Both the position numbers and the translations under genes were made by a program. Below, one piece after another: positions 3,347 through 59,913 of a DNA stretch of 64,000 bases. The notes beneath the pieces were generated by a model. The model was not told the origin of the DNA, did not search any database, and saw nothing but the letters and a program-made list of their open reading frames with translations. Position 1 is the first letter of the stretch, and every line of letters begins with the position of its first letter. Origin of the DNA: an uncultured bacterium (GTDB lineage: Bacteria; Oederibacteriota; JAAXVQ01; JAUVAV01); contig CAZVUO010000001.1 of the NCBI GenBank assembly GCA_964630235.1, positions 917,446 to 981,445 on the forward strand. Direction: 5' to 3'.

Positions 3347-3464
3347 CGTCACCCCGGCGTGGTTCTAGCCGGGGTCCAGGATCGAACGCCCCCTTGCGCC
3401 CCCTCTTTACCAAAGAGGGGGCGGGGGGAGTTGGATTCCGGCTCAATACATGCCGGAATGACGA
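3347..3464 (+). repeat. R-family structured repeat, copy B (with an internal CCCCCTCTTTaccAAAGAGGGGG hairpin module)
   Basis: Same arms as copy A. The internal module is shared with copy D. Confidence 0.7.
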
Positions 3465-4934: not shown

Positions 4935-5041
4935 TCGTCACCCCGGCATGAATCCAGCCGGGGTCCACAAGCTGGTCTTGGGTAAAAGTGAAACACAGAA
5001 TTCAATTCCTGGATACCGGCGAAGACCATGCCGGTGTGACG
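4935..5041 (+). repeat. R-family structured repeat, copy C
   Basis: CGTCACCCCGGC...GCCGGGGTCCA...CCTGGATACCGGC...GCCGGTGTGACG. Confidence 0.7.
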
Positions 5042-5088
5042 GAAAAAGAAATACCGTGGATAAACCTGAAACGAGGAATCACAACCTT

Positions 5089-6819
5089 ATGCGTTGGAGC
5101 CAGACCCTGATTGACACCCTGAAGGAAGTGCCGGCCGAGGCCGAGGTGAAGAGCCACCAGCTCATGCTGCGGGCCGGATTCATCAAGAAGCTGGCCGCCG
5201 GGCTCTACTCCTACCTGCCGCTCGGCTGGCGGACCATCCGCAAGATCGAGCAGATCGTGCGCGAGGAGATGGACGCGGCCGGCGCGGTCGAAGTGATGCT
5301 GCCCATCCTCTCGCCCGCGGAGCTGTGGCAGGAGACCGGCCGCTGGTCCCAGTACGGCGCGGAACTGTTCCGCGTGCAGGACCGGCATGAGCGCCAGTTC
5401 GCGCTCGGCCCCACGCACGAGGAAGTGATCACGGACCTGGTCCGCCGGACCGTGAAGTCCTACCGCCAGCTGCCCCTCAACTGCTACCAGATCCATACCA
5501 AGTTCCGGGACGAGATCCGCCCGCGCTTCGGCGTGATGCGGGCGCGGGAGTTCCTCATGAAGGACGCCTATTCCTTCGATCGCGACGAGGCCGGGGCCGA
5601 GGCGGCGTACGCGAAGATGTACGAGACCTACCACCGCATCTTCCGGCGCTGCGGTCTGCGCTTCAAGGCCGTGGAGGCCGATCCCGGAGCGATCGGCGGC
5701 TCCTTTTCCTCCGAGTTCATGGTGCTGGCCGAGACCGGCGAAGAGGCCATCGCGACCTGCGGACAGTGCGCCTACGCGGCCAATGTGGAGAAGGCCCAGG
5801 GCGAGCTCCCCGACCCCTCGGCCCCCGAAGCGCCGCAGGAGCGCAAGCTGGTGTCCACGCCCGGCCAGCACACCGTGGAGGAGGTCGCGGCCTTCCTGCG
5901 GGTGCCGGTGACGCGCCTGGCCAAGACCCTGCTCTACGCGGCGGACGGGAAGCTGGTCGCGGTGGTCATTCGCGGCGACCGGGATGTGAACGAGATCAAG
6001 CTGCGCAACGCGCTGGCCGCCCAAACGCTGGCGCTGGCCTCGCCGGAGCAGATCCGGCAGGCCACGGGCGCGCCCGTGGGATTCGCCGGGCCCTTCGGGC
6101 TCAACGGCGTGGCCGAGATCATCCAGGACGACTCGCTGGAGGGCGCCGCCAATCTCGTGACCGGCGGCAACCAGGCGGACACGCACGCCACGGGCGTCAC
6201 GCCCGGCCGCGACTACCAGCCCAGCCGGGTGCTCGACCTGCGCGTGGCGCGCGCGGGCGACCACTGCCCCCGGTGCGGCGGGGAACTCGGCATCGAGCGC
6301 GGCATCGAGGTCGGCCACGTGTTCAAGCTGGGGCTGAAGTACTCGCAGGCCATGCAGGCCTCGTTCCTGGACGAGGCGGGGCAGGAACGCCTGTGCGTCA
6401 TGGGCTGCTACGGCATCGGCGTGTCCCGCATCGCGGCCGCGGCCATCGAGCAGAACCACGATGAGCAGGGCATGATCTGGCCCATGCCGCTGGCCCCGGT
6501 CCAGGTGGTGCTGCTGCCCATCGCGCCCAAGGACCCGAAGGCCGGCGCCATGGCCGAGGAGGTTTACGCGGAGCTGACGGCCGCGGGCGTGGAAGCGCTG
6601 CTCGACGACCGCGACGAGCGGGCCGGGGTCAAGTTCAAGGACGCGGACCTGCTCGGCATCCCGCTTAGGCTCACCTTCGGCAAGCACGCGGCCGAGGGCC
6701 TGGTCGAGCTGAAGCGCCGGGACACCGGCGAAACGGCGCTGGTGCCCCGCGCTGAAGTTGCGGCCCGGGTCAAGACCCTGATCGCGGAACTTCTGCAGGC
6801 CGTCCGTCCCGCCGCATGA
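5089..6819 (+). CDS. proS: Proline--tRNA ligase ProS (bacterial type with editing domain)
   Basis: N-terminus MRWSQTLIDTLKE...HQLMLRAGFI, class II motifs, about 576 aa. GAGGA RBS 11 nt upstream of the ATG. Confidence 0.92.
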   Translation: MRWSQTLIDTLKEVPAEAEVKSHQLMLRAGFIKKLAAGLYSYLPLGWRTIRKIEQIVREEMDAAGAVEVMLPILSPAELWQETGRWSQYGAELFRVQDRHERQFALGPTHEEVITDLVRRTVKSYRQLPLNCYQIHTKFRDEIRPRFGVMRAREFLMKDAYSFDRDEAGAEAAYAKMYETYHRIFRRCGLRFKAVEADPGAIGGSFSSEFMVLAETGEEAIATCGQCAYAANVEKAQGELPDPSAPEAPQERKLVSTPGQHTVEEVAAFLRVPVTRLAKTLLYAADGKLVAVVIRGDRDVNEIKLRNALAAQTLALASPEQIRQATGAPVGFAGPFGLNGVAEIIQDDSLEGAANLVTGGNQADTHATGVTPGRDYQPSRVLDLRVARAGDHCPRCGGELGIERGIEVGHVFKLGLKYSQAMQASFLDEAGQERLCVMGCYGIGVSRIAAAAIEQNHDEQGMIWPMPLAPVQVVLLPIAPKDPKAGAMAEEVYAELTAAGVEALLDDRDERAGVKFKDADLLGIPLRLTFGKHAAEGLVELKRRDTGETALVPRAEVAARVKTLIAELLQAVRPAA

Positions 6820-7982
6820 ACATCGGGCTGGCGACGGACACGTACCTGCCCCGCATCAACGGCGTGGTCCAGTCCGTCGCGACCTTCGCCCGGGAGTTCC
6901 GGCGCCTGGGGCACCGCGTGGTGATCTTCGCGCCCGCGTTCCCCGGGAACGAGCAGGAGGAAACGGACGTCTGGCGCTTTCCCAGCCGGCGCCCCCGCAA
7001 CAATCCCGAAGACCGGTTGACCAATCCCCTGCATCCGAGCTCGCTGCGCCTGATGCGCCGGCTGTCCGGCCTGGAACTGGACGTGGTCCATACCCATACG
7101 CCGTTTTCCCTGGGAGGCATGCTGTTGCGCTGGGCGCGCCGGCACCGCGTGCCCACGGTGCATACCTACCATACCTATTTTGCGCGCTATGTCGAACATT
7201 ACCTGCGCCCCGTGCCGCACCGGACCGGCCAGTGGCTGGTGCGGCGCGTCTCCAGATCCTTCTGCAACCGGCACGATCTGGTGGTGACCCCCTCCCGGGC
7301 CATGGCCAGGATCCTGCGCCGCTACCAGGTTACCGTTCCGATCCGGGTCATTCCCACGGGCGTGGACCTGGAGGAGTTCAAGCGCGGCCGGCGTGCCCAG
7401 GGGCGCGCGGCCTTCAACCTGGGGCCGGACGACCAGGTCCTGCTCAGCCTGGGGCGCATCTCCGGCGAGAAGAACCTGGAACTGCTGCTGGACGCGCTCG
7501 TGCGCCTGGCGCCGGCCCATCCACGCCTGCGCCTGGTGCTGGCCGGGTCCGGGCCGGACCTGGACAGCATGCGGCAGGAGACCAGGCGGCGCGGACTGGC
7601 GGACCGCGTGGTCTTCGCGGGTTACGTGCGGGGCCAGGGCCGGCTCGACCTCTACGCCGCGGCGGACGTGTTCGTGCTGTCGTCCAAGACCGAAACCCAG
7701 GGGCTGGTGCTGAACGAAGCCATGGCCGCGGGCAAGCCCTGCGTGGCCGTGGGCGCCATGGGTGCCCGCGAAGCGCTGAAGCACGGCGGCGGCGCGCTGG
7801 TTCCGAACCAGCCCGCGGCGTTCGCCGCGGCCGTGGAGCGTCTGTTGGCCGATCCCGCCTGGTACGCGGCCAAACAGGCCGAGGCCCACGCTCAGGTCGC
7901 GCGCTATTCCGCCGCGGCCAAAGCGGAAGAACTGCTGGCCAGCTACCAGGAGCTGGCGGCGAAGAAGAGATCAAAGGCCTGA
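6816..7982 (+). CDS. GT4 glycosyltransferase, alMGS-like (putative monoglycosyl-diacylglycerol synthase)
   Basis: N-terminus MNIGLATDTYLPRINGV, typical of GT4 glycolipid synthases. ATGA overlap with the proS stop. Confidence 0.75.
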   Translation: MNIGLATDTYLPRINGVVQSVATFAREFRRLGHRVVIFAPAFPGNEQEETDVWRFPSRRPRNNPEDRLTNPLHPSSLRLMRRLSGLELDVVHTHTPFSLGGMLLRWARRHRVPTVHTYHTYFARYVEHYLRPVPHRTGQWLVRRVSRSFCNRHDLVVTPSRAMARILRRYQVTVPIRVIPTGVDLEEFKRGRRAQGRAAFNLGPDDQVLLSLGRISGEKNLELLLDALVRLAPAHPRLRLVLAGSGPDLDSMRQETRRRGLADRVVFAGYVRGQGRLDLYAAADVFVLSSKTETQGLVLNEAMAAGKPCVAVGAMGAREALKHGGGALVPNQPAAFAAAVERLLADPAWYAAKQAEAHAQVARYSAAAKAEELLASYQELAAKKRSKA

Positions 7983-8007
7983 AAAGCCAAAAGGAGCCTT
8001 GCACATC

Positions 8008-9174
8008 ATGCACATCGGAATGGTCACGGACACGTTTCTGCCGCGCATCAACGGCGTTACCAAATCCACCCTGACCTTCGCCGAGCATTTCCGGCGGCTG
8101 GGCCACCGCGTGACTATTTTCGCCCCTCAGTATCCCAAGGCCCAGGACGAGAGCGCGGACGTCTGGCGCTTTCCCTCGTACTTTCTTTTCTTCAGTCCCG
8201 AGGACCGGCTGAGCAATCCGCTGGGTCTGGCCGCGCGCCGCTTATTTAAAAAACTTCCGGCGCTCAAGCTCGATATCCTGCACACGCAAACGCCCTTTGC
8301 CCTGGGCATGGCCATGGCCCGGTGGGCGAAGCGCCGGGGGGTGCCGTCCTTGCACACCTACCATACCCTGTTTGAAGCCTACATGCCCCACTACTTCGGC
8401 CTGCTCCCCCGGTCCCTGGACAAACCCATCGTGGCCTCCTTTTCGCGCTGGTTTTGCAATCTGCACGACCAGGTGGTGGTGCCTTCGAGCGCCATCGCCG
8501 ACGTGCTCGCCGGTTACCGCCTCGCCGTGCCCGTCAAGGTCCTGCCCACGGGCACGGACCTGTCGCCCTTCCAGAACCTGGACGGCAACCGCATGCGCGA
8601 AAAGCTGGGCTTTGGCCCGGAGGACAAGCTGCTGCTTTCCATGGGCCGGGTGGCGCACGAGAAGAACATCCCGTTTTTGTTCGACGTGCTGGAGCGCCTG
8701 AAATCCGAACAGCCGCGGGCCAGGCTGGTGGTGGCCGGGCAGGGTCCGGCGCTGGAATCCGTGAAGGCCGAAAGCGAACGGCGGAAGCTGGGCGAGCGCG
8801 TGATCTTTCTCGGCCTGCTGAACCGCCGGGACTGGGCGGACCTGTACGCCGCGGCGGACCTGCACCTGCTGGCTTCGGTCACCGAAACCCAGGGCCTGGT
8901 GCTGACCGAGTCCATGGCCGCGGGCACGCCCTGCGTGGCCGTGGCCGCCATGGGCGTGCGGGACGTTATGCAGGGCGGCGGCGGATTGGCCGTATCGCTG
9001 AACGTCGAGGAGTTCAGCCAGGCGGTCAACCGTTTGCTGGGAGATAAAACGCTCTACGCGGACAAGGTCGCGGAGTGCGGCCGCCAGGCCGTCGCGTGGT
9101 CCGCGGAAACCAAGGCCAAGGAAATGCTGGACAACTACGCCCAGCTGATCGCCGCGAAAGGAAATGTCCGCTGA
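8008..9174 (+). CDS. GT4 glycosyltransferase, paralog of the upstream gene (putative second glycolipid glycosyltransferase)
   Basis: MHIGMVTDTFLPRINGV aligns with the upstream paralog. The ATG at 8008 was chosen by paralog alignment. The ORF track instead starts at TTG 7999. Confidence 0.75.
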   Translation: MHIGMVTDTFLPRINGVTKSTLTFAEHFRRLGHRVTIFAPQYPKAQDESADVWRFPSYFLFFSPEDRLSNPLGLAARRLFKKLPALKLDILHTQTPFALGMAMARWAKRRGVPSLHTYHTLFEAYMPHYFGLLPRSLDKPIVASFSRWFCNLHDQVVVPSSAIADVLAGYRLAVPVKVLPTGTDLSPFQNLDGNRMREKLGFGPEDKLLLSMGRVAHEKNIPFLFDVLERLKSEQPRARLVVAGQGPALESVKAESERRKLGERVIFLGLLNRRDWADLYAAADLHLLASVTETQGLVLTESMAAGTPCVAVAAMGVRDVMQGGGGLAVSLNVEEFSQAVNRLLGDKTLYADKVAECGRQAVAWSAETKAKEMLDNYAQLIAAKGNVR

Positions 9175-11094: not shown

Positions 11095-11240
11095 TCCATC
11101 CCCTCCGCGGGGGGTGAATGCGGAATGGTTGCTCCGTGGATGTCGCCAAGAGGGGGTAGCGAGGGGTGCGGTTGGTATCCCGGTGGGAGCCCTTCGGTCC
11201 CCAAAGGGACTTCTTTCAGTCGCCGGGGGGCTCCATCGCT
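11095..11240 (+). repeat. F-family repeat, copy 1 (in the dnaE/polC leader)
   Basis: CCCCTCCGCGGGGGGTGAATGCGGAAT..GGATGTCGCCAAGAGGGGGTAGCGAGGGGTG...cUUCGg hairpin...GGGGGGCTCCAT. Confidence 0.7.
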
Positions 11241-30971: not shown

Positions 30972-31859
30972 GTGTCCGCGGGCCTGCTCGCGCTGCGCAA
31001 GCCGGGAGGGCCGACCTCGGCCGCCTTGGTGGGGCGCGTGCGGCGGCTGACCGGCGCGGCGCGCGCCGGTCACAGCGGCACCCTAGACCCGGCCGCGGAC
31101 GGCGTGCTGATCGTCGCGTTGGGCCAGTCCACCAGCCTTTTCCCCTACCTTCCCTCGGATAAAACCTACCGCGCCGTGATCCGGCTGGGCGCGACTACCG
31201 CGACGGACGATGCGCAGGGCGAGATCCTGACCAGGGCCAGCGTGCCGCCTTTCAGCCGGGAGCAGGTGGCGGCCACCCTGGAGCGCTGGGTCGGCCCTCA
31301 ACTGCAAATCCCCCCCATGGTCTCCGCCCGCCGCCACCGCGGCGAACGGCTGTATCAGATCGCCCGGCGCGGGGAAACCGTACTGCGGGCGCCTCGCCGG
31401 GTGCTGGTGCACGCTCTGCGCCTTTTGGACTGGCAGCCGCCGGACGTGAGCCTTGAAGCCCACTGTTCCAGCGGAACGTACATCCGTTCACTGGCTGCGG
31501 ACCTCGGCCGGGTCTGGGGCTGCGGGGCTCATTTGCTCCGCTTGACCCGCACGCGGTGCAACGGGTTCGGCTGGGAAGAGGCCGTGGCTTGGGAAACCTT
31601 CGAAGCCTCGACTGCGAACGGTTCCAGCGCGTGGCGGCGCTTCCTGGTGGACCCGAGCCGGGCTCTGGCCCACTTGCCGGGCGTGGCGGTGGATGAAGCA
31701 GGGCGCCAGGATGTGTCGCACGGGCGGCCGCTGGCTGGCCTGCAGGCCCCTCCCGGATTGGTGCGGGTGCTGGACGCGGAAGGGCGGCTGCTGGCCGTGG
31801 CGCGGGCTGAGCAGAACAAGTTGGTGATGGAGCGGGTGCTGGTATCACCTCGGCAGTAA
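30972..31859 (+). CDS. truB: tRNA pseudouridine(55) synthase TruB
   Basis: GHSGTLDPAADGVL catalytic Asp motif. GTG start inferred in-frame just after the nrnA stop. Confidence 0.82.
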   Translation: MSAGLLALRKPGGPTSAALVGRVRRLTGAARAGHSGTLDPAADGVLIVALGQSTSLFPYLPSDKTYRAVIRLGATTATDDAQGEILTRASVPPFSREQVAATLERWVGPQLQIPPMVSARRHRGERLYQIARRGETVLRAPRRVLVHALRLLDWQPPDVSLEAHCSSGTYIRSLAADLGRVWGCGAHLLRLTRTRCNGFGWEEAVAWETFEASTANGSSAWRRFLVDPSRALAHLPGVAVDEAGRQDVSHGRPLAGLQAPPGLVRVLDAEGRLLAVARAEQNKLVMERVLVSPRQ

Positions 31860-31936
31860 TCTTAGCCGGGATTCGAAAAGAGATTGCCACGCGCTCCCTA
31901 CGGGATCGCTCGTCATGACTGCATTGGAAAGTTGTC

Positions 31937-31962
31937 TGTCATTGCGAGGACCGGAGGGACTT
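31937..31962 (+). repeat. Partial MITE-like end (GTCATTGCGAGGACCGGAGGGAC)
   Basis: Matches the left end of the 49096 element. No right terminal repeat was found. Confidence 0.4.
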
Positions 31963-32995: not shown

Positions 32996-33136
32996 GTTGC
33001 CCATCCCCTCCGCGGGGGGGGGGCGAATGCGGAATCGCTGTTCTGGGGATGTCGCCCAGAGGGGTAGCGAGGGGTGAAGTTGGTACTCCGGGTTTTGTCC
33101 CTAAAGGGACTTCTTGCAGTCGCCCGGGGGCTCCAT
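32996..33136 (+). repeat. F-family repeat, copy 2 (upstream of hup)
   Basis: About 85% identical to copy 1. Confidence 0.7.
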
Positions 33137-33176
33137 GCAAGTAACGGTGACAAAGTCCACCTCGAGGTAAGCACGC

Positions 33177-36277: not shown

Positions 36278-36395
36278 TGTCACCCCGGCATGCCTATAGC
36301 CGGGGTCCAGATGCGAACTCCCCCTTTTCCCCCTCTTTACCAAAGAGGGGGCAGGGGGGAGTTGGATTCCGGCTAAAACCATGCCGGAATGACGA
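36278..36395 (+). repeat. R-family structured repeat, copy D (with the hairpin module)
   Basis: Near-identical to copy B over the internal module. Confidence 0.7.
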
Positions 36396-38304: not shown

Positions 38305-38435
38305 CCCCTCCCCTCCGCAGGGCACCCCGAGCTTGCTCGGGGGTGAATGCGGAATCGTTGCTCCGGGGATGTCGCCAAGCAGGGGTAGCGAGGATTGAAG
38401 TGGGTACCCCGGGCCCTTCGGCCGGGGGGCTCCCT
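38305..38435 (+). repeat. F-family repeat, copy 3 (upstream of rtcB)
   Basis: Same core GGGTGAATGCGGAATCGTTGCTCCGGGGATGTCGCCAAG, ending GGGGGGCTCCC. Confidence 0.7.
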
Positions 38436-38506
38436 CGACAGGCTCGGGGACCTAGAAAGATGTTTCCCGCATTGAACCTCTGCGGTCTTGGCGTTATACT
38501 CCTGCC

Positions 38507-39964: not shown

Positions 39965-39983
39965 ATGTACCCCTGTCCCCACA

Positions 39984-40019
39984 CCCCTCTTTGCTAAAGA
40001 GGGGCAGGGGGAGATTACT
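39984..40019 (+). repeat. Hairpin repeat module (CCCCTCTTTgctaAAGAGGGGCAGGGGGAGATTACT)
   Basis: Perfect 9-bp stem. The same module is found at 59878-59913 (reverse) and, diverged, at 40053-40088, 59806-59840 and inside R copies B and D. Confidence 0.6.
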
Positions 40020-40121
40020 TATCATCCGTCCAGTCGGCAGTTGAGGTTTATGAGTAATCCCCCTTCGCCCCCTTTAGAAAAGGGGGCAGTCAACAGCAAG
40101 TGGGGAATAAAAGGTATACAC

Positions 40122-42064: not shown

Positions 42065-42181
42065 CGTCACCCCGGCCCAGTCCTGTCTGATCTGGGCCAG
42101 GGCGAAAGCCGGGGTCCAGTATCAGGCATTAATCAAATCAAATTCCCTGGATTCCGGCTAACTACATGCCGGAAAGACGAG
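42065..42181 (+). repeat. R-family structured repeat, copy E
   Basis: CGTCACCCCGGC...GCCGGGGTCCAG...CCTGGATTCCGGC...GCCGGAAAGACG. Confidence 0.7.
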
Positions 42182-46019: not shown

Positions 46020-47510
46020 ATGGGGCATGACTACGAAGTGGTGATCGGGCTGGAGGTGCACGCCGAACTGGCCACTGCCTCCAAAATTTTCTGCGGCTGT
46101 CCCACGGCCTTCGGGGCGCCGCCCAACACCCAGACCTGCCCGGTCTGCCTGGGCCTGCCGGGGTCCCTGCCGGTGTTCAACCGGCGGGTGCTGGAGCTGG
46201 CCGTCCGCGCCGCCCTGGCGCTCGCGTGCGAGATCGCGCCTCAGACCAAGTTCGACCGCAAGAATTATTTCTATCCTGACCTGCCCAAAGCCTACCAGAT
46301 CTCCCAGTACGACCTGCCCCTGGCCCTGCACGGCCGTCTGACCATTGACACACCCGAAGGGGCCCGGACGATCGGCATCACCCGCGTGCACATGGAAGAG
46401 GACGCGGGCAAACTCCTGCACCAGACCGCTGGCGGCCAGATCGGCCGGGCCGCGAGCTCCCTGGTGGATTACAACCGCGCGGGCGTGCCGCTCATCGAGA
46501 TCGTCAGCGAACCGGACCTGCGCTCGCCCGAAGAAGCCTACGCCTATCTCGCCGAACTCAAGGCCATCCTGCGCTATACGGACGTGTCGGACTGCAACAT
46601 GGAGGAGGGCAGCCTGCGCTGCGACGCCAACATTTCAGTCCGTCCCCGGGGCCAGCAGGCCTTGGGCGCCAAGATCGAAGTCAAGAACATGAACTCCTTC
46701 AAGAACGTGCGGGATGCCCTGGCCTATGAAGCTGAGCGTCAGATCCGGGCGGTGTCCGAGGGCGCGGTGCTGACCCAGGAAACCCGGCTGTGGGACGCGG
46801 AGCAGGGCAAGACCCTGCCCATGCGCGGCAAGGAAGAGGCGCATGACTACCGCTATTTCCCCGAGCCGGATCTGCCGCGCCTGGCGCCGGAAGCGGGATG
46901 GATCGAGGACATCAGGAAGAATCTGCCTGAGCTGCCGCGCGCGAAGCGGGGACGGTTTCAGGCCCAGCACCGCCTGAGCGCCTACGACGCAGGCGTCCTG
47001 ACCACGACGCGCCTTCTGGCCGATTTTTTCGAGGCGGCGGTCGGGTCCGCGCCAGTCCCGGTTCCCGAAACCTTGCCCAAAGCGGTCAGCAATTGGCTGA
47101 CCGGCGACTATCTTGGACGCCTCAACGCCGAAGGCAAGGACCTGGAGCGCGAGACCCCGGCCACCCTGCCGATCAAGCCGGAACAACTGGGACGGTTGGC
47201 CGCGCTCACCAGCTCCGGCGAGATCTCCTCGAAGATCGGGAAACAGGTTTTCGACGAGATGTTCACCACCGGCAAGGACCCCGACGACATCATCAAAGCC
47301 GAGGGCTTATCCCAGATCTCCGACCCCGAGGCCTTGGGCCGCCTGGTGGAGCAGGCGATTGCGGCGAATCCCGGGCCAGCGGCGGAATATCGCAAGGGCA
47401 AGCAGCAGGCCCTGGGTTTTCTGGTCGGGCAGATCATGAAAGCGTCGCGGGGCAAGGCCAATCCGCAGATGATCAACCAGTTGCTGCGGGAGAAGTTATT
47501 GGGCTCATAA
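46020..47510 (+). CDS. gatB: Glu/Asp-tRNA amidotransferase subunit B
   Basis: N-terminus [17 protein letters not shown]...CGCPT...CPVCLGLPG. Confidence 0.92.
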
Positions 47511-47530
47511 CAAAGTGACCGTCAGTGCGA

Positions 47531-47624
47531 GCAACAAAGAGAGCGCGGCAATCTGATTTTGCTCGAATAATACGAGATTGCTTCGTCGCCCCGAAGGGAA
47601 CTCCTCGCAATGACGAGGCGAAGG
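47531..47624 (+). mobile_element. MITE-like element with 11-bp terminal inverted repeats GTCAGTGCGAG / CTCGCAATGAC
   Basis: Terminal inverted repeats plus internal GCGGCAATC / GATTGCTTCG complementary segments. Non-coding and intergenic. Confidence 0.55.
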
Positions 47625-47669
47625 TTTTGATAACACTCTGCTAATTCAGCACCGGGAGGAGACAACCTT

Positions 47670-49070
47670 TTGTCCACCGCCTCAACCACGCCGGCCGCGG
47701 TCCGGGTGGGCGAAGAACTTGAACTGGCGGTCACGAGCCTGGCCTACGGCGGCGAGGGCATCGGCCGCCACGGCGGGCTGGTGGTGTTCGTGGCCGGCGC
47801 CCTGCCCGGCGACCGCGTCACCTGCCGCGTGCAGCAGGTCAAATCCCATTTCGCGCGCGCGGACCTGATCGCGGTTCTCGAGGCCTCGCCGGACCGGGTC
47901 GAACCTTTCTGCCCCCTGGCCCGCGAATGCGGCGGCTGCACCTGGCAGCATCTCGCCTACCCGGCCCAGGTCCAGGCCAAGCAGCTGTTCGTGCAGAACG
48001 CCCTCCAGCACGTGGGCCGGATTCGAAACGCCGCGGTGCCGGGCGTCATCAAGGCGGTTCCGCAAACCGGGTACCGGCACAAGATCCAGATCCCCCTGCA
48101 GTCCCAGAACGGAGCCCTGGCCGCCGGTTTTTACGCGGCCAAGACCCATCGCGTCATCCCGATGGACGAATGTCCGGTCCAACCGCCTTTGGGCAACCGC
48201 CTCCTCCGGGCGGTGCGCGATTTGGCCGCGGATTTCAATTACCACGGATACGATGAGACCGAACGGCAAGGCGACTTACGGCACCTCGTGATCCGGCTGG
48301 GACTGCATACCAAGGAAGCCCTGGCCATCCTGGTGACGCCTCAGTCCGCGGTTCCGCGCCTTGAAGAATTCGCCGGCCACCTGATGCAGCGGGTTCCCGA
48401 GCTGGTGGGTGTGGTCCAGAACGTGAACCCCGAGGCCACGAATGTCATTTTGGGCCGCACCTTCAAGCCGCTGGCAGGCCATCCGTATATATATGAAGAG
48501 ATCGAAGGCCTCCGGTTCAGGATCTCCGCCGGCTCGTTCTTCCAGGTCAATCCGTTTCAGGTGCCGCTCCTGCTGGCCGCGGTCAGCCAGGCCGCGGACC
48601 TGACCGGCCGGGAAAGCGTGGTGGACCTTTACTGCGGCGTGGGGCTCCTGACCCTGGCCCTGGCGCGGCAGGCGCGCCTGGTGGTGGGGGTGGAGGACGT
48701 GCCCGGCGCCGTGGAGGACGCCCAGGCCAACAAACATCTGAACGGCTTCTCCCACGTCGAATTCCTGGCTGCGGACGCGGCCGCCGGGTTCAAGCAGCTG
48801 GCGGCCAAGGGCTTGCAGCCGGACGTGGTGCTGCTCGATCCGCCGCGCAAAGGCGCGGACCCGAAAGTCCTGGCTCAGTTGGACCAGCACAAACCCAAGC
48901 GCGTGGTCATGGTCTCCTGCAATCCGGTCACCCTGGCCCGCGACCTGGCGCGCCTGGCCGCTTCCGGGTACCGGGTCCTGCAAGCCCAGCCGCTGGATTT
49001 TTTTCCGCACACCTATCATGTGGAGACCGTGGCCACGCTGGTCAGGAAAAACAACCAAGGGAAGCGTTGA
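47670..49070 (+). CDS. rlmD: 23S rRNA (uracil-C5)-methyltransferase RlmD/RumA
   Basis: TRAM domain, 4Cys Fe-S motif (CPLARECGGCTWQ), SAM MTase (DLYCGVG) and NPPR. TTG start with a GGGAGGA RBS. Confidence 0.88.
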   Translation: MSTASTTPAAVRVGEELELAVTSLAYGGEGIGRHGGLVVFVAGALPGDRVTCRVQQVKSHFARADLIAVLEASPDRVEPFCPLARECGGCTWQHLAYPAQVQAKQLFVQNALQHVGRIRNAAVPGVIKAVPQTGYRHKIQIPLQSQNGALAAGFYAAKTHRVIPMDECPVQPPLGNRLLRAVRDLAADFNYHGYDETERQGDLRHLVIRLGLHTKEALAILVTPQSAVPRLEEFAGHLMQRVPELVGVVQNVNPEATNVILGRTFKPLAGHPYIYEEIEGLRFRISAGSFFQVNPFQVPLLLAAVSQAADLTGRESVVDLYCGVGLLTLALARQARLVVGVEDVPGAVEDAQANKHLNGFSHVEFLAADAAAGFKQLAAKGLQPDVVLLDPPRKGADPKVLAQLDQHKPKRVVMVSCNPVTLARDLARLAASGYRVLQAQPLDFFPHTYHVETVATLVRKNNQGKR

Positions 49071-49095
49071 CCGGCGGCGGAAGCCAATCCTCTTT

Positions 49096-49334
49096 GTCAT
49101 TGCGAGCGACCGGAGGAAGTCCCATAGCTATCCGGTCGGGGCGACCGGAGGAAGTCCCATAGCTATCCGGTCGGGGCGACCGGAGGAAGTCCCATAGCTA
49201 TCCGGTCGGGGCGACCGGAGGAAGTCCCATAGCTATCCGGTCGGGGCGACCGGAGGAAGCGAAGCAATCGCGCTTTTCTCAAAGTCGAGATTGCCGCGTC
49301 GCCCTTCGGCAAGCCCGGGGCTTCTCGCCATGAC
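49096..49334 (+). mobile_element. MITE-like element (terminal repeats GTCATTGCGAG / CTCGCCATGAC) carrying an internal tandem expansion
   Basis: Flanks match the reverse complement of the 58561-58659 copy. The interior has 4.4 perfect 35-bp repeats. Confidence 0.6.
49107..49259 (+). repeat. Perfect tandem repeat, 35-bp unit x 4.4 (CGACCGGAGGAAGTCCCATAGCTATCCGGTCGGGG)
   Basis: Four identical units plus a 13-bp partial unit. No spacers, so this is not a CRISPR array. Confidence 0.9.
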
Positions 49335-49368
49335 CCCTATGGCAGCGAAAAGTTGAGGACCAAGAAGC

Positions 49369-51951
49369 ATGAAGAAAAAACTCCTGCTCATTGACGGCAC
49401 GGCCCAGCTGTACCGCGCGTTCTACGCCATTAAGGAGCTGACCGATCCCAAGGGCCGGCCCGTGAACGCGGTGTACGGTTTTGCCCAAACCCTGCTCAAC
49501 CTGCTTGCGACGTTTTCTCCCACGCATGCGGCGTCGGTTTTCGACCGGCCGGAACCCACCCACCGGCACGCGCAATTTCCGGCTTACAAAGCCCAGCGCG
49601 AAACCGTGCCCGAAGGGCTGGTGGCGCAGATTCCGCTGGTGCGCAGCCTGACCGAGGCGTTCAGCGTCCGCCCCATCGAACAGCCGGGCTGGGAGGCGGA
49701 CGACCTCATTGCCACTCTGGCCCGGCGGGCGCGGCGGGAAGGCTTCGAAGTCCTGATCTTCAGCAACGACAAAGACCTCCTGCAGCTGGTGGGCGACGGC
49801 GTCCGCCTGGTCCGGCCCCAGCGTCCGGGACATAAAGACTACGAGGTGCTGGACCCTGCCGGCGTGGAACAGGCCTTTGGCGTCCCCCCGGACCAGGTGG
49901 CGGAGGTGCTGGCGCTCATGGGCGACAGTTCGGACAATATTCCCGGCGTGCCGGGCGTAGGTCCGAAAACCGCGGTGGAACTGATCCGCGTTCACGGGTC
50001 GCTGCAAAATCTCTATGCCGATCTCTCCCGCGTGCCGCAGCCAAAGCTGCGCGAAAAACTGGCCGCGCACCGCGCCGAGGCCGAACAGGCCCGCGGGCTG
50101 GTGCTCCTGCGCGGCGATGCCTCACTGGCTGTTTCCTGGGAGGAGCTTGCCCTTCCGGGTAAAACACCGGACGCGGCCTATGCGCTGCTGGCCGAGCTGG
50201 GTTTCAAACGCCTCCTCCTGCGGCAGGGAGCGGCCGGCCCGGCCCAGGCCGGGACCTGGGCTCAGGACCTTCGCGCCGACGCGGATCCGGCGGCCGTGCT
50301 GGCCGAGGCCCGGGCCTCCAAACTGCTGGCCGTGGAACGCCTGCCCGGGGGTGTGGCCTTGGCCGCATCGGCCCGTTCCGCGGCCTGGCTGCCTTTCGCG
50401 GACCCGGATGCGGGTTCGGCGCTGGAGGACTGGTTTGGCCTCCACCCCGAGGTGGTCGAGATTCTCGCTGATCCCGCGGTCGGCAAGATCGGCTATGACC
50501 TCAAAGCCCTGGCCACGGCCCTGTGCCGCCTGGGGCGCGCGCTGCAGGGTCCTCTCGAGGACCTCCACCTGATCGCGCACCTCCTGGACCTGCCGAGCAA
50601 CCGGCCGGCGGATTTCGCGGCCCGGCTTCTGGGCGGGCCGCCGCCCGAGGACAAACTCGCCGTGCTGGCCTGCGCCTGGCTGCTGGTCGGGCGCACGCTC
50701 CGGGCCCAGCTCGCCGAAAAGGAATCGGAGCGGTTGTACCGCGACGTCGAACTGCCGCTCCTGCCGGTTTTGGCGGACATGGAAGCGCGGGGCGTGGCCG
50801 TGGACAGCCAGGCCCTGTCCGACATGGCCGAGGACCTGGGGCGGGAGATGTCCGGCCTGGAGGCGGAGATCCGCCACCTGGCCGGCGGGGAATTCAACCT
50901 GCGCTCGACCCAGCAGCTCGCGGAGGTGCTGTTCGACCGGCTGGGGCTGGCCTCCGGAAAAAAAACCAAGACCGGCCGATCGACCAGCGTGGACGTGCTT
51001 GAGCAACTGGCCGCTCAGCACCCCCTGCCGCAGAAAATTCTGGACTACCGGCAGGCGCAGAAACTGAAATCCACCTACCTCGACGTGCTGCCCCAGCTGG
51101 TGGACCCCCGCGACGGCCGCGTGCATACCACTTTCCACCAAGTGGGCGCGGCCACGGGCCGGCTCTCGTCCTCGGACCCGAACCTCCAGAACATCCCGGT
51201 GCGGACCGAGCGCGGCCGCGAGCTGCGCAGAATGTTCGTGCCCGGCTCGCCGGGGGTTCGCCTGCTCTCGGCGGATTATTCCCAGATCGAGCTGCGCCTG
51301 CTGGCGCATTTTTCGGAGGACCCGCGCATGATCGCGGATTTCCAGGAGGGCCTGGACATCCACCAGGCGACAGCCGCCGAGATCTTCAACGTGCCCAGGG
51401 AGCAGGTTACGCCGGACATGCGGCGCCAGGCGAAAACCTGTAATTTCGGCATCGCCTACGGCGTCAGTCCTTTCGGACTGGCGCGCCAGCTCAGGATTTC
51501 GAACCAGCGGGCCAAGGCGTTCATAGACGGTTTTTACGCCCGCTATCCCCGCGTGCGTCGCTACCTGGACCACCTGCTGACCACGGCGCGGCGCCAGGGC
51601 TATGTCAGCACGTTTCTCGGCCGGCGCCGGCCCACGCCCGACGTGTCGTCGGCCAACCGCGCGGTCCGCGAGGCGGGAGAACGCATGGCCATCAATATGC
51701 CGATCCAGGGTTCGGCCGCGGATCTGATCAAGCTGGCCATGGTCGCGGTCGCCAAGGACCTGGCCGAACGGAAGCTGCGGTCACGCATGATTCTGCAGGT
51801 GCACGACGAGCTGCTGTTCGAGGGTCCGGAATCGGAAATGCCCGAACTGGGCGAACGGGTCCGCGACCGCATGAGCGGGATCCATCCTTTGAAAGTTCCC
51901 CTGGTCGTGGACGTAGCCTGGGGGAACAACTGGATGGAAGCGCACGGATAG
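49369..51951 (+). CDS. polA: DNA polymerase I (5' nuclease plus a vestigial 3'-5' exo domain plus polymerase)
   Basis: 5'-3' exonuclease N-terminus and polymerase motifs A/B/C (DYSQIELR, RRQAKTCNFGIAYG, QVHDEL). Confidence 0.92.
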   Translation: MKKKLLLIDGTAQLYRAFYAIKELTDPKGRPVNAVYGFAQTLLNLLATFSPTHAASVFDRPEPTHRHAQFPAYKAQRETVPEGLVAQIPLVRSLTEAFSVRPIEQPGWEADDLIATLARRARREGFEVLIFSNDKDLLQLVGDGVRLVRPQRPGHKDYEVLDPAGVEQAFGVPPDQVAEVLALMGDSSDNIPGVPGVGPKTAVELIRVHGSLQNLYADLSRVPQPKLREKLAAHRAEAEQARGLVLLRGDASLAVSWEELALPGKTPDAAYALLAELGFKRLLLRQGAAGPAQAGTWAQDLRADADPAAVLAEARASKLLAVERLPGGVALAASARSAAWLPFADPDAGSALEDWFGLHPEVVEILADPAVGKIGYDLKALATALCRLGRALQGPLEDLHLIAHLLDLPSNRPADFAARLLGGPPPEDKLAVLACAWLLVGRTLRAQLAEKESERLYRDVELPLLPVLADMEARGVAVDSQALSDMAEDLGREMSGLEAEIRHLAGGEFNLRSTQQLAEVLFDRLGLASGKKTKTGRSTSVDVLEQLAAQHPLPQKILDYRQAQKLKSTYLDVLPQLVDPRDGRVHTTFHQVGAATGRLSSSDPNLQNIPVRTERGRELRRMFVPGSPGVRLLSADYSQIELRLLAHFSEDPRMIADFQEGLDIHQATAAEIFNVPREQVTPDMRRQAKTCNFGIAYGVSPFGLARQLRISNQRAKAFIDGFYARYPRVRRYLDHLLTTARRQGYVSTFLGRRRPTPDVSSANRAVREAGERMAINMPIQGSAADLIKLAMVAVAKDLAERKLRSRMILQVHDELLFEGPESEMPELGERVRDRMSGIHPLKVPLVVDVAWGNNWMEAHG

Positions 51952-58560: not shown

Positions 58561-58659
58561 GTCATTGCGAGGCTCCCCGAGCATGTCGAGGGGAGACGCG
58601 GCAATCTTGACTTTGAGAAAAGCGCGATTGCTTCGCTTCCTCCGGTCGCTCGCAACGAC
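58561..58659 (-). mobile_element. MITE-like element, unexpanded copy in inverse orientation
   Basis: GTCATTGCGAG...CTCGCAACGAC terminal repeats. The internal GACTTTGAGAAAAGCGCGATTGCTTCGCTTCCTCCGGTCGCTCGCAA is the exact reverse complement of the 49096-49334 element flanks. Confidence 0.6.
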
Positions 58660-59756: not shown

Positions 59757-59805
59757 GAATCCCCTCTCTTGAGGGGATTCATCCAAGATTCATTGGATGT
59801 TGATT

Positions 59806-59840
59806 GCCCCCTTTTCTAAAGGGGGCGAAGGGGGATTACT
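59806..59840 (+). repeat. Hairpin repeat module (GCCCCCTTTTctaAAGGGGGCGAAGGGGGATTACT)
   Basis: Related to 39984-40019. The reverse-complement version is at 40053-40088. Confidence 0.5.
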
Positions 59841-59877
59841 CACAATCCTCAAGTGCCGATTTGATGGTTTATTAATA

Positions 59878-59913
59878 ATCTCCCCCTGCCCCTCTTTAGG
59901 AAAGAGGGGTGGA
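59878..59913 (-). repeat. Hairpin repeat module, reverse orientation
   Basis: AATCTCCCCCTGCCCCTCTTTaggAAAGAGGGGTGG is the reverse complement of the 39984 module. Confidence 0.55.

Follow-up and report, generated by a model that had tools for sequence, protein, structure and literature searches.

Between rlmD (47670-49070, forward strand; NCBIfam TIGR00479, 453 bits) and polA (49369-51951, forward strand; NCBIfam NF004397, 957 bits) lies a palindromic element of 239 bp, here called element B (49096-49334), which starts 25 nt after the rlmD stop codon and ends 34 nt before the polA ATG. The window, by which we mean the whole 64-kb stretch of DNA that was analysed, contains no rRNA or tRNA genes, and no promoter-like or terminator-like sites were found in 47400-49500. 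Element B is built as a tags-outside (HH) dimer of two arms that resemble CGTC-type repetitive extragenic palindromes (REPs). Its left arm opens with the terminal 11-mer GTCATTGCGAG (49096-49106, forward strand), preceded by a T at 49095 that completes the tag TGTC, and ends on the inner side with CGAAGCAATC (49260-49269, forward strand), which comprises the stem partner GCAAT and the first base of the tail. The right arm (49289-49334, reverse strand) consists of GATTGCCGCG, a side hairpin and the terminal 11-mer CTCGCCATGAC, located at 49324-49334 with one mismatch. The spacer between the arms (49270-49288) differs at one position from the reverse complement of the spacer of another copy in the window, element C.

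The variable loop segment of the left arm is occupied by a tandem array (49106-49259, forward strand) of the unit GCGACCGGAGGAAGTCCCATAGCTATCCGGTCGGG. As a sequence-only reading of this DNA had described it, the array is perfect: Tandem Repeats Finder (TRF) reports a period of 35 bp, 4.4 copies, 100% matches, no indels and a score of 308, by far the highest of any tandem repeat in the window. The first unit forms a hairpin with an 8-bp stem (CGACCGGA/TCCGGTCG) and a 16-nt loop (49107-49138, forward strand) that recurs in each unit, and the fold of the 35-nt unit has a DNA dG of -8.6 kcal/mol (z -2.7). When the four inserted units are removed, element B measures 99 bp and folds into a single long hairpin (DNA dG -25.8 kcal/mol, z -3.0). 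An arm HMM, trained only on copies from other genomes, detects every arm in the window and cuts the left arm of element B in two, with one piece on each side of the array.

Related elements and other repeats in the window

The 11-mer GTCATTGCGAG, with up to one mismatch, occurs at 7 sites in the window against 1.16 expected, a number reached in none of 100 shuffles, and these sites delimit three elements, A, B and C, together with a lone end at 31938. The proposed family with 11-bp terminal repeats is borne out in its membership, but not in the exactness of its ends, as A, B and C each carry a single mismatch in one of their two terminal 11-mers. Element A is a 94-bp dimer (47521-47614) with CGTC tags at both ends, whose right arm is detected by the arm HMM at E = 7.6e-9; it starts 10 nt after the gatB stop codon, and the genes gatB, rlmD and polA that flank elements A and B are co-directional (NCBIfam annotation). 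Element C is a 99-bp dimer in the thyX-prfA spacer (58561-58659). Element B had been taken for the exact reverse complement of this copy, but only 88 of the 99 bases match after removal of the four units, the left 64 bases agreeing at 62 positions and the right arm at about 25 of 35. The lone end belongs to a pair of half elements with inward tags in the truB-ribF spacer (31880-31960), in which a degenerate arm ending with CTCGTCATGAC at 31919 is followed by an 18-nt linker and by an arm that begins with GTCATTGCGAG at 31938. The 3' end of truB (31845-31859, …CTCGGCAGTAATC) is similar to the inner GCAATC part of an arm, and the degenerate arm may supply the last codons and the stop of this gene.

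Elements A, B and C all have their tags outside and an inter-arm distance of about 19-22 nt. Their tags read CGTC/CGTC in A, TGTC/GGTC in B and AGTC/GGTC in C, and the 31938 arm carries TGTC, so that a C/T-GTC tag is present on four of the eight arm ends in the window. The tails are CTG, CTC, CGC or CTT, and CCA is found in none of them. The ATTGC...GCAAT stem is present in B and C, while the left arm of A has AGTGC instead. The 22-bp insert that distinguishes the array unit is present, within the window, only at element B.

Several other repeats were observed in the same DNA. Two segments at 39982-40102 and 59791-59911 form a 121-nt inverted pair with 88% complementarity, a separate repeat family with two hairpins of the CCCCTCTTT...AAAGAGGGG type per arm. 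A G-rich repeat of 110-130 nt (GGGGGTGAATGCGGAATCGTTGCTCCGGGGATGTCGCC...GGGGTAGCGAGGGGTGAAGTTGGTACCCCGG) occurs in three direct copies (about 11097-11230, 33005-33140 and 38320-38440) and has no match in Rfam. Within 6815-8984, two stretches, 74-79% identical, are repeated 1192 bp apart and probably represent tandem paralogous genes.

Copy number of the array and alleles of the rlmD-polA spacer

To judge the array against independent assemblies, we used Logan contigs (k=31) in which precisely this rlmD is encoded. Nine such contigs (of 12 on record), derived from nine different read sets, are identical to the window up to a break, which falls at 49135 in eight of them and at 49134 in the ninth. 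We simulated how a unitig extends in a de Bruijn graph (k=31) built from the window, giving the array between 0 and 6 inserted units; the walk ended at 49129 with no inserted unit, at 49170 with one and at 49135 with two or more. Because the nine contigs break as simulated for at least two inserted units, the array is present at no fewer than 2.4 copies in many independent data sets, and is not a one-off product of a single assembly, the outcome named beforehand as its refutation. A 30-nt stretch that is also present in element C makes the Logan contigs with polA begin at 49257, and they are therefore uninformative on copy number.

It is unlikely that the array or its copy number is an artefact of assembly, arising from a repeat that forms a cycle in the graph. 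Shortest-path simulations show that k=127 or 141 graphs return four inserted units for any true number of at least four, and the 154 bp of the array is exactly this saturation length; moreover, the array was judged from assemblies rather than reads, and two scans of metagenome contigs, one with the unit junction and the other with the 3' end of rlmD, returned 0 matches each. Against an artefact stand the nine independently assembled contigs, the 1.19-Mb contig of the source genome, which suggests long reads, and an allele from sister strains, T2, in which k=31 contigs pass through the 1.4 copies and which therefore marks a real difference between strains. The tandem array is real, with at least 2.4 copies, and its exact number of 4.4 may be a floor, set by the assembler if the source assembly was made from short reads.

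Sister strains were found through the cluster members of polA and rlmD. Their rlmD DNA is 96.9-98.4% identical to that of the window and among the strains, and their polA genes share 99.9-100% identity among themselves. The rlmD-polA spacer exists in three alleles, W (that of the window), T2 and T1. The T2 allele (L135, L136, L137 and L142) contains an ortholog of element B in unchanged orientation, identical at 122 of 134 positions to W collapsed to 1.4 copies; the 35-bp module is present there in exactly 1.4 copies, which contain two substitutions, and the k=31 contigs run through it, matching the expectation for one inserted unit. In the T1 allele (L134, L139-141, L145, L148-150 and L152-157, a set that includes ENA, JGI and NCBI contigs, and to which L146 and L147, stopping inside the element, are consistent) the element is inverted, with an alignment score of 110 in the reverse orientation against 40.5, and a related 47-nt insert lies between the same CGACCGGAGG direct repeats. 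The comparison of copy number across strains that had been proposed as a check thus gives 1.4 copies in the T2 strains, at least 2.4 in L125-L133 and 4.4 in the window at the orthologous locus, and the predicted hypervariable (VNTR) locus between rlmD and polA is matched by three differing alleles.

Outside the element, the spacer is unalignable between alleles (T1 in L134, 7103-7285, and T2 in L135, 1617-1809, compared with window positions 49071-49369), and homology restarts within the polA start codon, at its second base; the codon itself differs between the three alleles (ATG, GTG or TTG). This apparent wholesale replacement of the spacer between alleles goes beyond simple slippage. The spacer between the two arms of element B is one mismatch away from that of element C and many from that of its T2 ortholog, which suggests that gene conversion may have taken place between B and C. 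The neighbouring gatB-rlmD spacer (window 47511-47669) also varies, with a 350-bp allele at L134 5352-5701 where other G-rich hairpin repeats take the place of the left arm of element A; L145-147 keep element A, with changes mostly in the small side-hairpin segments.

Since sister strains carry 1.4 copies, this number was the ancestral state of the module, which was expanded in the lineage of the window. The expansion is taken to be recent because the copies show zero divergence, against two substitutions in the sister allele, and the very recent expansion claimed in the sequence-only reading agrees with the 1.4 copies of the same element in the sister strains. In the 1.4-copy state, a 22-nt piece lies between 13-nt direct repeats (CGACCGGAGGAAG) within the variable segment of the arm. 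Short direct repeats are a classical substrate for slipped-strand mispairing or unequal exchange, and either event between the 13-nt repeats would add identical modules, probably aided by the 8-bp hairpin of the module; slippage as the route of expansion is what we infer from the end states.

The direct repeats also bear on a further alternative, under which a second, tiny mobile element, the 35-bp module, entered the arm with a 13-bp target duplication and then multiplied. This would account for the bracketing of the insert by CGACCGGAGGAAG, for the uninterrupted arm in element C and in a relative from Patescibacteria (L021), and for the longer related insert between the same repeats in T1. 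We nevertheless regard it as highly improbable, given that the 22-bp insert is found nowhere else in the window, that no further copies are known, and that one duplication yields the 1.4-copy structure equally well.

Slippage or unequal exchange between the direct repeats remains our preferred account of the array, which probably has no specific function. Element B is probably co-transcribed with the co-directional gatB-rlmD-polA genes and would act at most as an mRNA hairpin. A cis-acting RNA element, such as a terminator, attenuator or stabiliser, that tunes polA and has the array as its functional part would fit the intercistronic site between co-directional genes and the stable hairpin formed by each unit, and REPs are generally held to act as RNA hairpins in the available text of the REP survey by Di Nocera, De Gregorio and Rocco (2013, BMC Genomics 14:522; PMC3733652). 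Such a role is very unlikely for this locus: it is at odds with the lack of terminator-like and promoter-like sites around the element noted above, and no particular structure is conserved, as the three alleles are very different and one of them is inverted. Because these dissimilar alleles occur in near-identical strains, a specific regulatory role of the array in particular is improbable. Searches against Rfam gave no match at the gathering threshold in the window and none in 18 related loci, and a permissive scan gave none at the element and only three unrelated matches at chance level; the element is outside the described RNA families.

Arm structure and distribution of the family

The family was searched for with the exact pattern GTCATTGCGAG-N55-85-CTCGCAATGAC in one genome per species, for which about 2 matches are expected by chance according to our own calculation. 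At least 120 loci were found in genomes of at least eight phyla, with a pattern that itself selects tags-outside dimers and a length limit that misses most expanded copies. Among the matches listed are Alpha- and Gammaproteobacteria, Bacteroidota, Ignavibacteriota, Patescibacteria, Planctomycetota, Chloroflexota, Desulfobacterota and a Moduliflexus MAG, and the same end pattern was present in at least 120 viral contigs of IMG/VR. Only five plasmid records with the element were found, and there is no close relative without the element among them. Searches of the literature with sequence strings of the element and its encoded peptides returned primers only or no match, and searches with the sample accessions returned no match.

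The 128 copies recovered follow one plan: the end 11-mer leads into a short segment that varies, then come GAAGCAAT, a tail and a spacer, also variable, of about 20-30 nt, after which the parts return as a mirror image. An arm, given in single-stranded form by ATTGCGAGCGNAGCGAAGCAAT, is composed of the tag (C/T)GTC, which stays unpaired, a hairpin whose stem is interrupted (ATTGC-GAG-[small variable hairpin]-GAA-GCAAT) and a short tail. Immediately beyond the left 11-mer, 70% of the copies have C and 25% have T; beyond the right one, 72% have G and 25% have A. This flanking base pair covaries between the two ends (CG in 62, UA in 12), so that the ends extend to the tag. The ATTGC...GCAAT stem is present in all relatives with exact ends, and of the 196 arms parsed from relatives, 118 have CCA as their tail. 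Each arm stem has five continuous Watson-Crick pairs, with an interior made of GAG, then CGNAGC or GAGCGAAGCGAC, and GAA. The inner stem and the tails covary, with a score of 0.153; shuffles gave 0.081 (none of 500 reached the observed value) and slid controls no more than 0.068. Compensatory changes are exemplified by a pair in the tail that reads CG in 56 sequences and UA in 21. For this analysis the inner stem was specified by hand, as RNAalifold alone returned no more than the outer stem, a stem that is invariant by selection. Most often the variable segment reads CGNAGC, where the N of GCGNAGC is C in 32, A in 28, T in 11 and G in 7 cases. We take GCGNAGC to be the very stable DNA mini-hairpin with a GNA triloop; presumably the flanking GA and GAA could form sheared G.A pairs, and tandem G.A pairs together with the GNA triloop could lengthen the stack.

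Besides the tags-outside dimers there are single arms, tandem ends and tags-inside pairs, both in other genomes, L103 among them, and at 31880-31960 of the window. Tandem arrays are found in further copies: a perfect array of 16 bp x 5.0 lies inside the spacer of a copy on an IMG/VR contig (L204, 8930-9091), an array of 35 bp x 3.1 with 98% matches covers a tag end and its flank in a Coxiellaceae MAG (L078, 616-722), and an array of 17 bp x 2.6 with 89% matches was detected in L067. In L085 (2681-2843), a CGTC-1-type REP (TGTCATTCCTGCGAAAGCAGGAATCTAG) is nested in the spacer of a ATTGCGAG-type dimer.

The sequence-only reading had called the family MITE-like, and a genuine MITE would be a deletion derivative of an insertion sequence (IS), moved in trans by a transposase acting on the 11-bp terminal inverted repeats. 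The size of about 95 bp, the 11-bp inverted ends and the several copies in 64 kb are what such an origin predicts, as are the many copies per genome, for example at least 40 matching places in one Novosphingobium replicon. We find this origin quite improbable. Target-site duplications, looked for at A, B and C as had been suggested, are absent from all three and from 117 of 128 relatives, a number much like the 121 seen in shuffled pairings. The 1.95 Mb of flanks hold neither a recurrent transposase nor a long parent bounded by the terminal inverted repeats, and no autonomous IS with the same ends was found there or in 11 long stretches bounded by these repeats. The existence of single arms and of tags-inside pairs, together with ends that continue into the covarying C/T-GTC tag, is at variance with a MITE, and near-identical ends in at least eight phyla are unlike IS-specific MITEs. 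All-against-all clustering of neighbouring open reading frames found only generic and phage structural proteins to be recurrent. Another possible associate, the GIY-YIG (YhbQ-like) nucleases, whose genes can lie beside such repeats, gave no match in 0.9 Mb of flanks in a phmmer search with an E. coli YhbQ query and was set aside.

Comparison with REPs, MITEs and minisatellites

We consider it likely that the feature between rlmD and polA is a REP-type palindromic doublet, not a transposon derivative, in which the module of one arm has been amplified, and the element itself is probably an uncatalogued, bulged member of the CGTC-tagged REPs. In the available text of the 2013 survey (PMC3733652), REPs are sorted into GTAG- and CGTC-tagged superfamilies, the latter with the families CGTC-1 to CGTC-4 and including dRS3 of Neisseria and RPE-4 and RPE-6 of Rickettsia. 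As described there, CGTC repeats have an unpaired CGTC tag, often TGTC and with CCTC allowed, a stem of 8-9 bp that opens with A-T pairs, a loop of 4-5 nt and a CCA tail; they mostly form HH dimers with spacers of 20-100 nt, lie close to where the upstream ORF ends, between genes that are either co-directional or convergent, have no associated transposase and occur in five phyla, mainly in alpha-proteobacteria (PMC3733652). By the authors' own statement in this text, members with bulged stems would have evaded their search (PMC3733652).

Compared with this description, as far as the available text goes, the present family likewise has a C/T-GTC tag, a stem that opens with A-T pairs, a tail that fits CCA in most relatives and a prevalence of HH dimers, and it lies just after the upstream ORF, without a dedicated transposase, in several phyla with alpha-proteobacteria prominent. 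The CGTC tag is a feature of the family and only in part of the window copies, half of which lack it and none of which has the CCA tail. The A-T-first stem is shared apart from the left arm of A, the tags-outside dimer apart from the pair at 31880-31960, and the intergenic position without a recurrent transposase in the flanks is shared as well. The stem of 8-9 bp with a loop of 4-5 nt is not a property of this family, whose five pairs are followed by GAG/GAA and a small inner hairpin in place of the 8-9 continuous pairs of the described repeats. The range is also wider than that given in the available text, extending to Patescibacteria, Chloroflexota, Desulfobacterota, Ignavibacteriota, Planctomycetota and viral contigs. 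In the intragenic table of the survey, CGTC-1 repeats encode the peptides SFPRKRES, VIPAKAGI and PAFAGMT and are thus of the GTCATTCCCGC type, and the peptides expected from the present family are absent from this table (PMC3733652, available text). Support for the assignment comes from the window itself, since classical CGTC REPs, with tags-outside dimers, an 8-bp stem and a CCA tail (e.g., CGTCACCCCGGTGAAAACCGGGGTCCAG), are present at 2134-2211, 3348-3462, 4937-5042, 36279-36393 and 42066-42180. Two of these five dimers have a CCCCCTCTTTACCAAAGAGGGGG hairpin in the spacer.

How transposase-less CGTC repeats spread has been a question since 2013, which the present locus and a repeat type found in at least eight phyla illustrate without resolving it. 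The ends of the ATTGCGAG type are near base-perfect from Bradyrhizobium to Patescibacteria and phage-like contigs. One speculative reading, to which we assign a low probability, is that the ATTGCGAG-type doublet is an uncatalogued transposase-less branch of the CGTC repeats, and that its copying is done by a universal host process that acts on hairpins in single-stranded DNA, which would be template switching during replication or repair and would need no enzyme encoded by the element. If this were true, the strain series at the rlmD-polA locus, with inversion of the doublet, growth of the insert from 22 to 47 nt, an increase from 1.4 to 4.4 modules and replacement of the spacer, would be a snapshot of the process in action. 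In practical terms, such sequences should be annotated as REP-type repeats, and neither as MITEs nor as the small spurious ORFs that they often generate. For this species, the rlmD-polA spacer is a length-variable strain marker; it breaks short-k assemblies, and copy numbers read from short-read assemblies of this spacer may be floors.

REPINs, which are pairs of GTAG-type REPs, are reportedly mobilised by RAYT transposases according to Bertels and Rainey in 2011. Like REPINs, the present elements consist of two inverted REP units that form a long hairpin, and they occur in many intergenic copies without target-site duplications. They differ in the tag, which is CGTC and not GTAG, and in being near-identical across phyla, in contrast to the lineage-specific pairing of REPINs and RAYTs. 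No RAYT gene was found in the flanks of the present elements, and the available text of the survey reports that none was found flanked by CGTC units (PMC3733652).

Among the bacterial MITEs are Correia/NEMIS, Nezha and Chunjie, with which element B and its relatives share their size, terminal inverted repeats, intergenic position and probable co-transcription; unlike MITEs, the present elements have no target-site duplication and no parent IS in the 1.95 Mb of flanks, and their arms act as independent units. Bacterial VNTR or minisatellite loci are similar to the array of element B in their perfect head-to-tail units, here of 35 bp and in strain-dependent number (1.4 vs at least 2.4), but here the units form hairpins themselves, and the array sits within a dispersed palindromic repeat, in one of its arms. 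The rlmD-polA element is a small palindromic intergenic repeat of a known kind, in which an amplified hairpin module makes the locus variable between strains.
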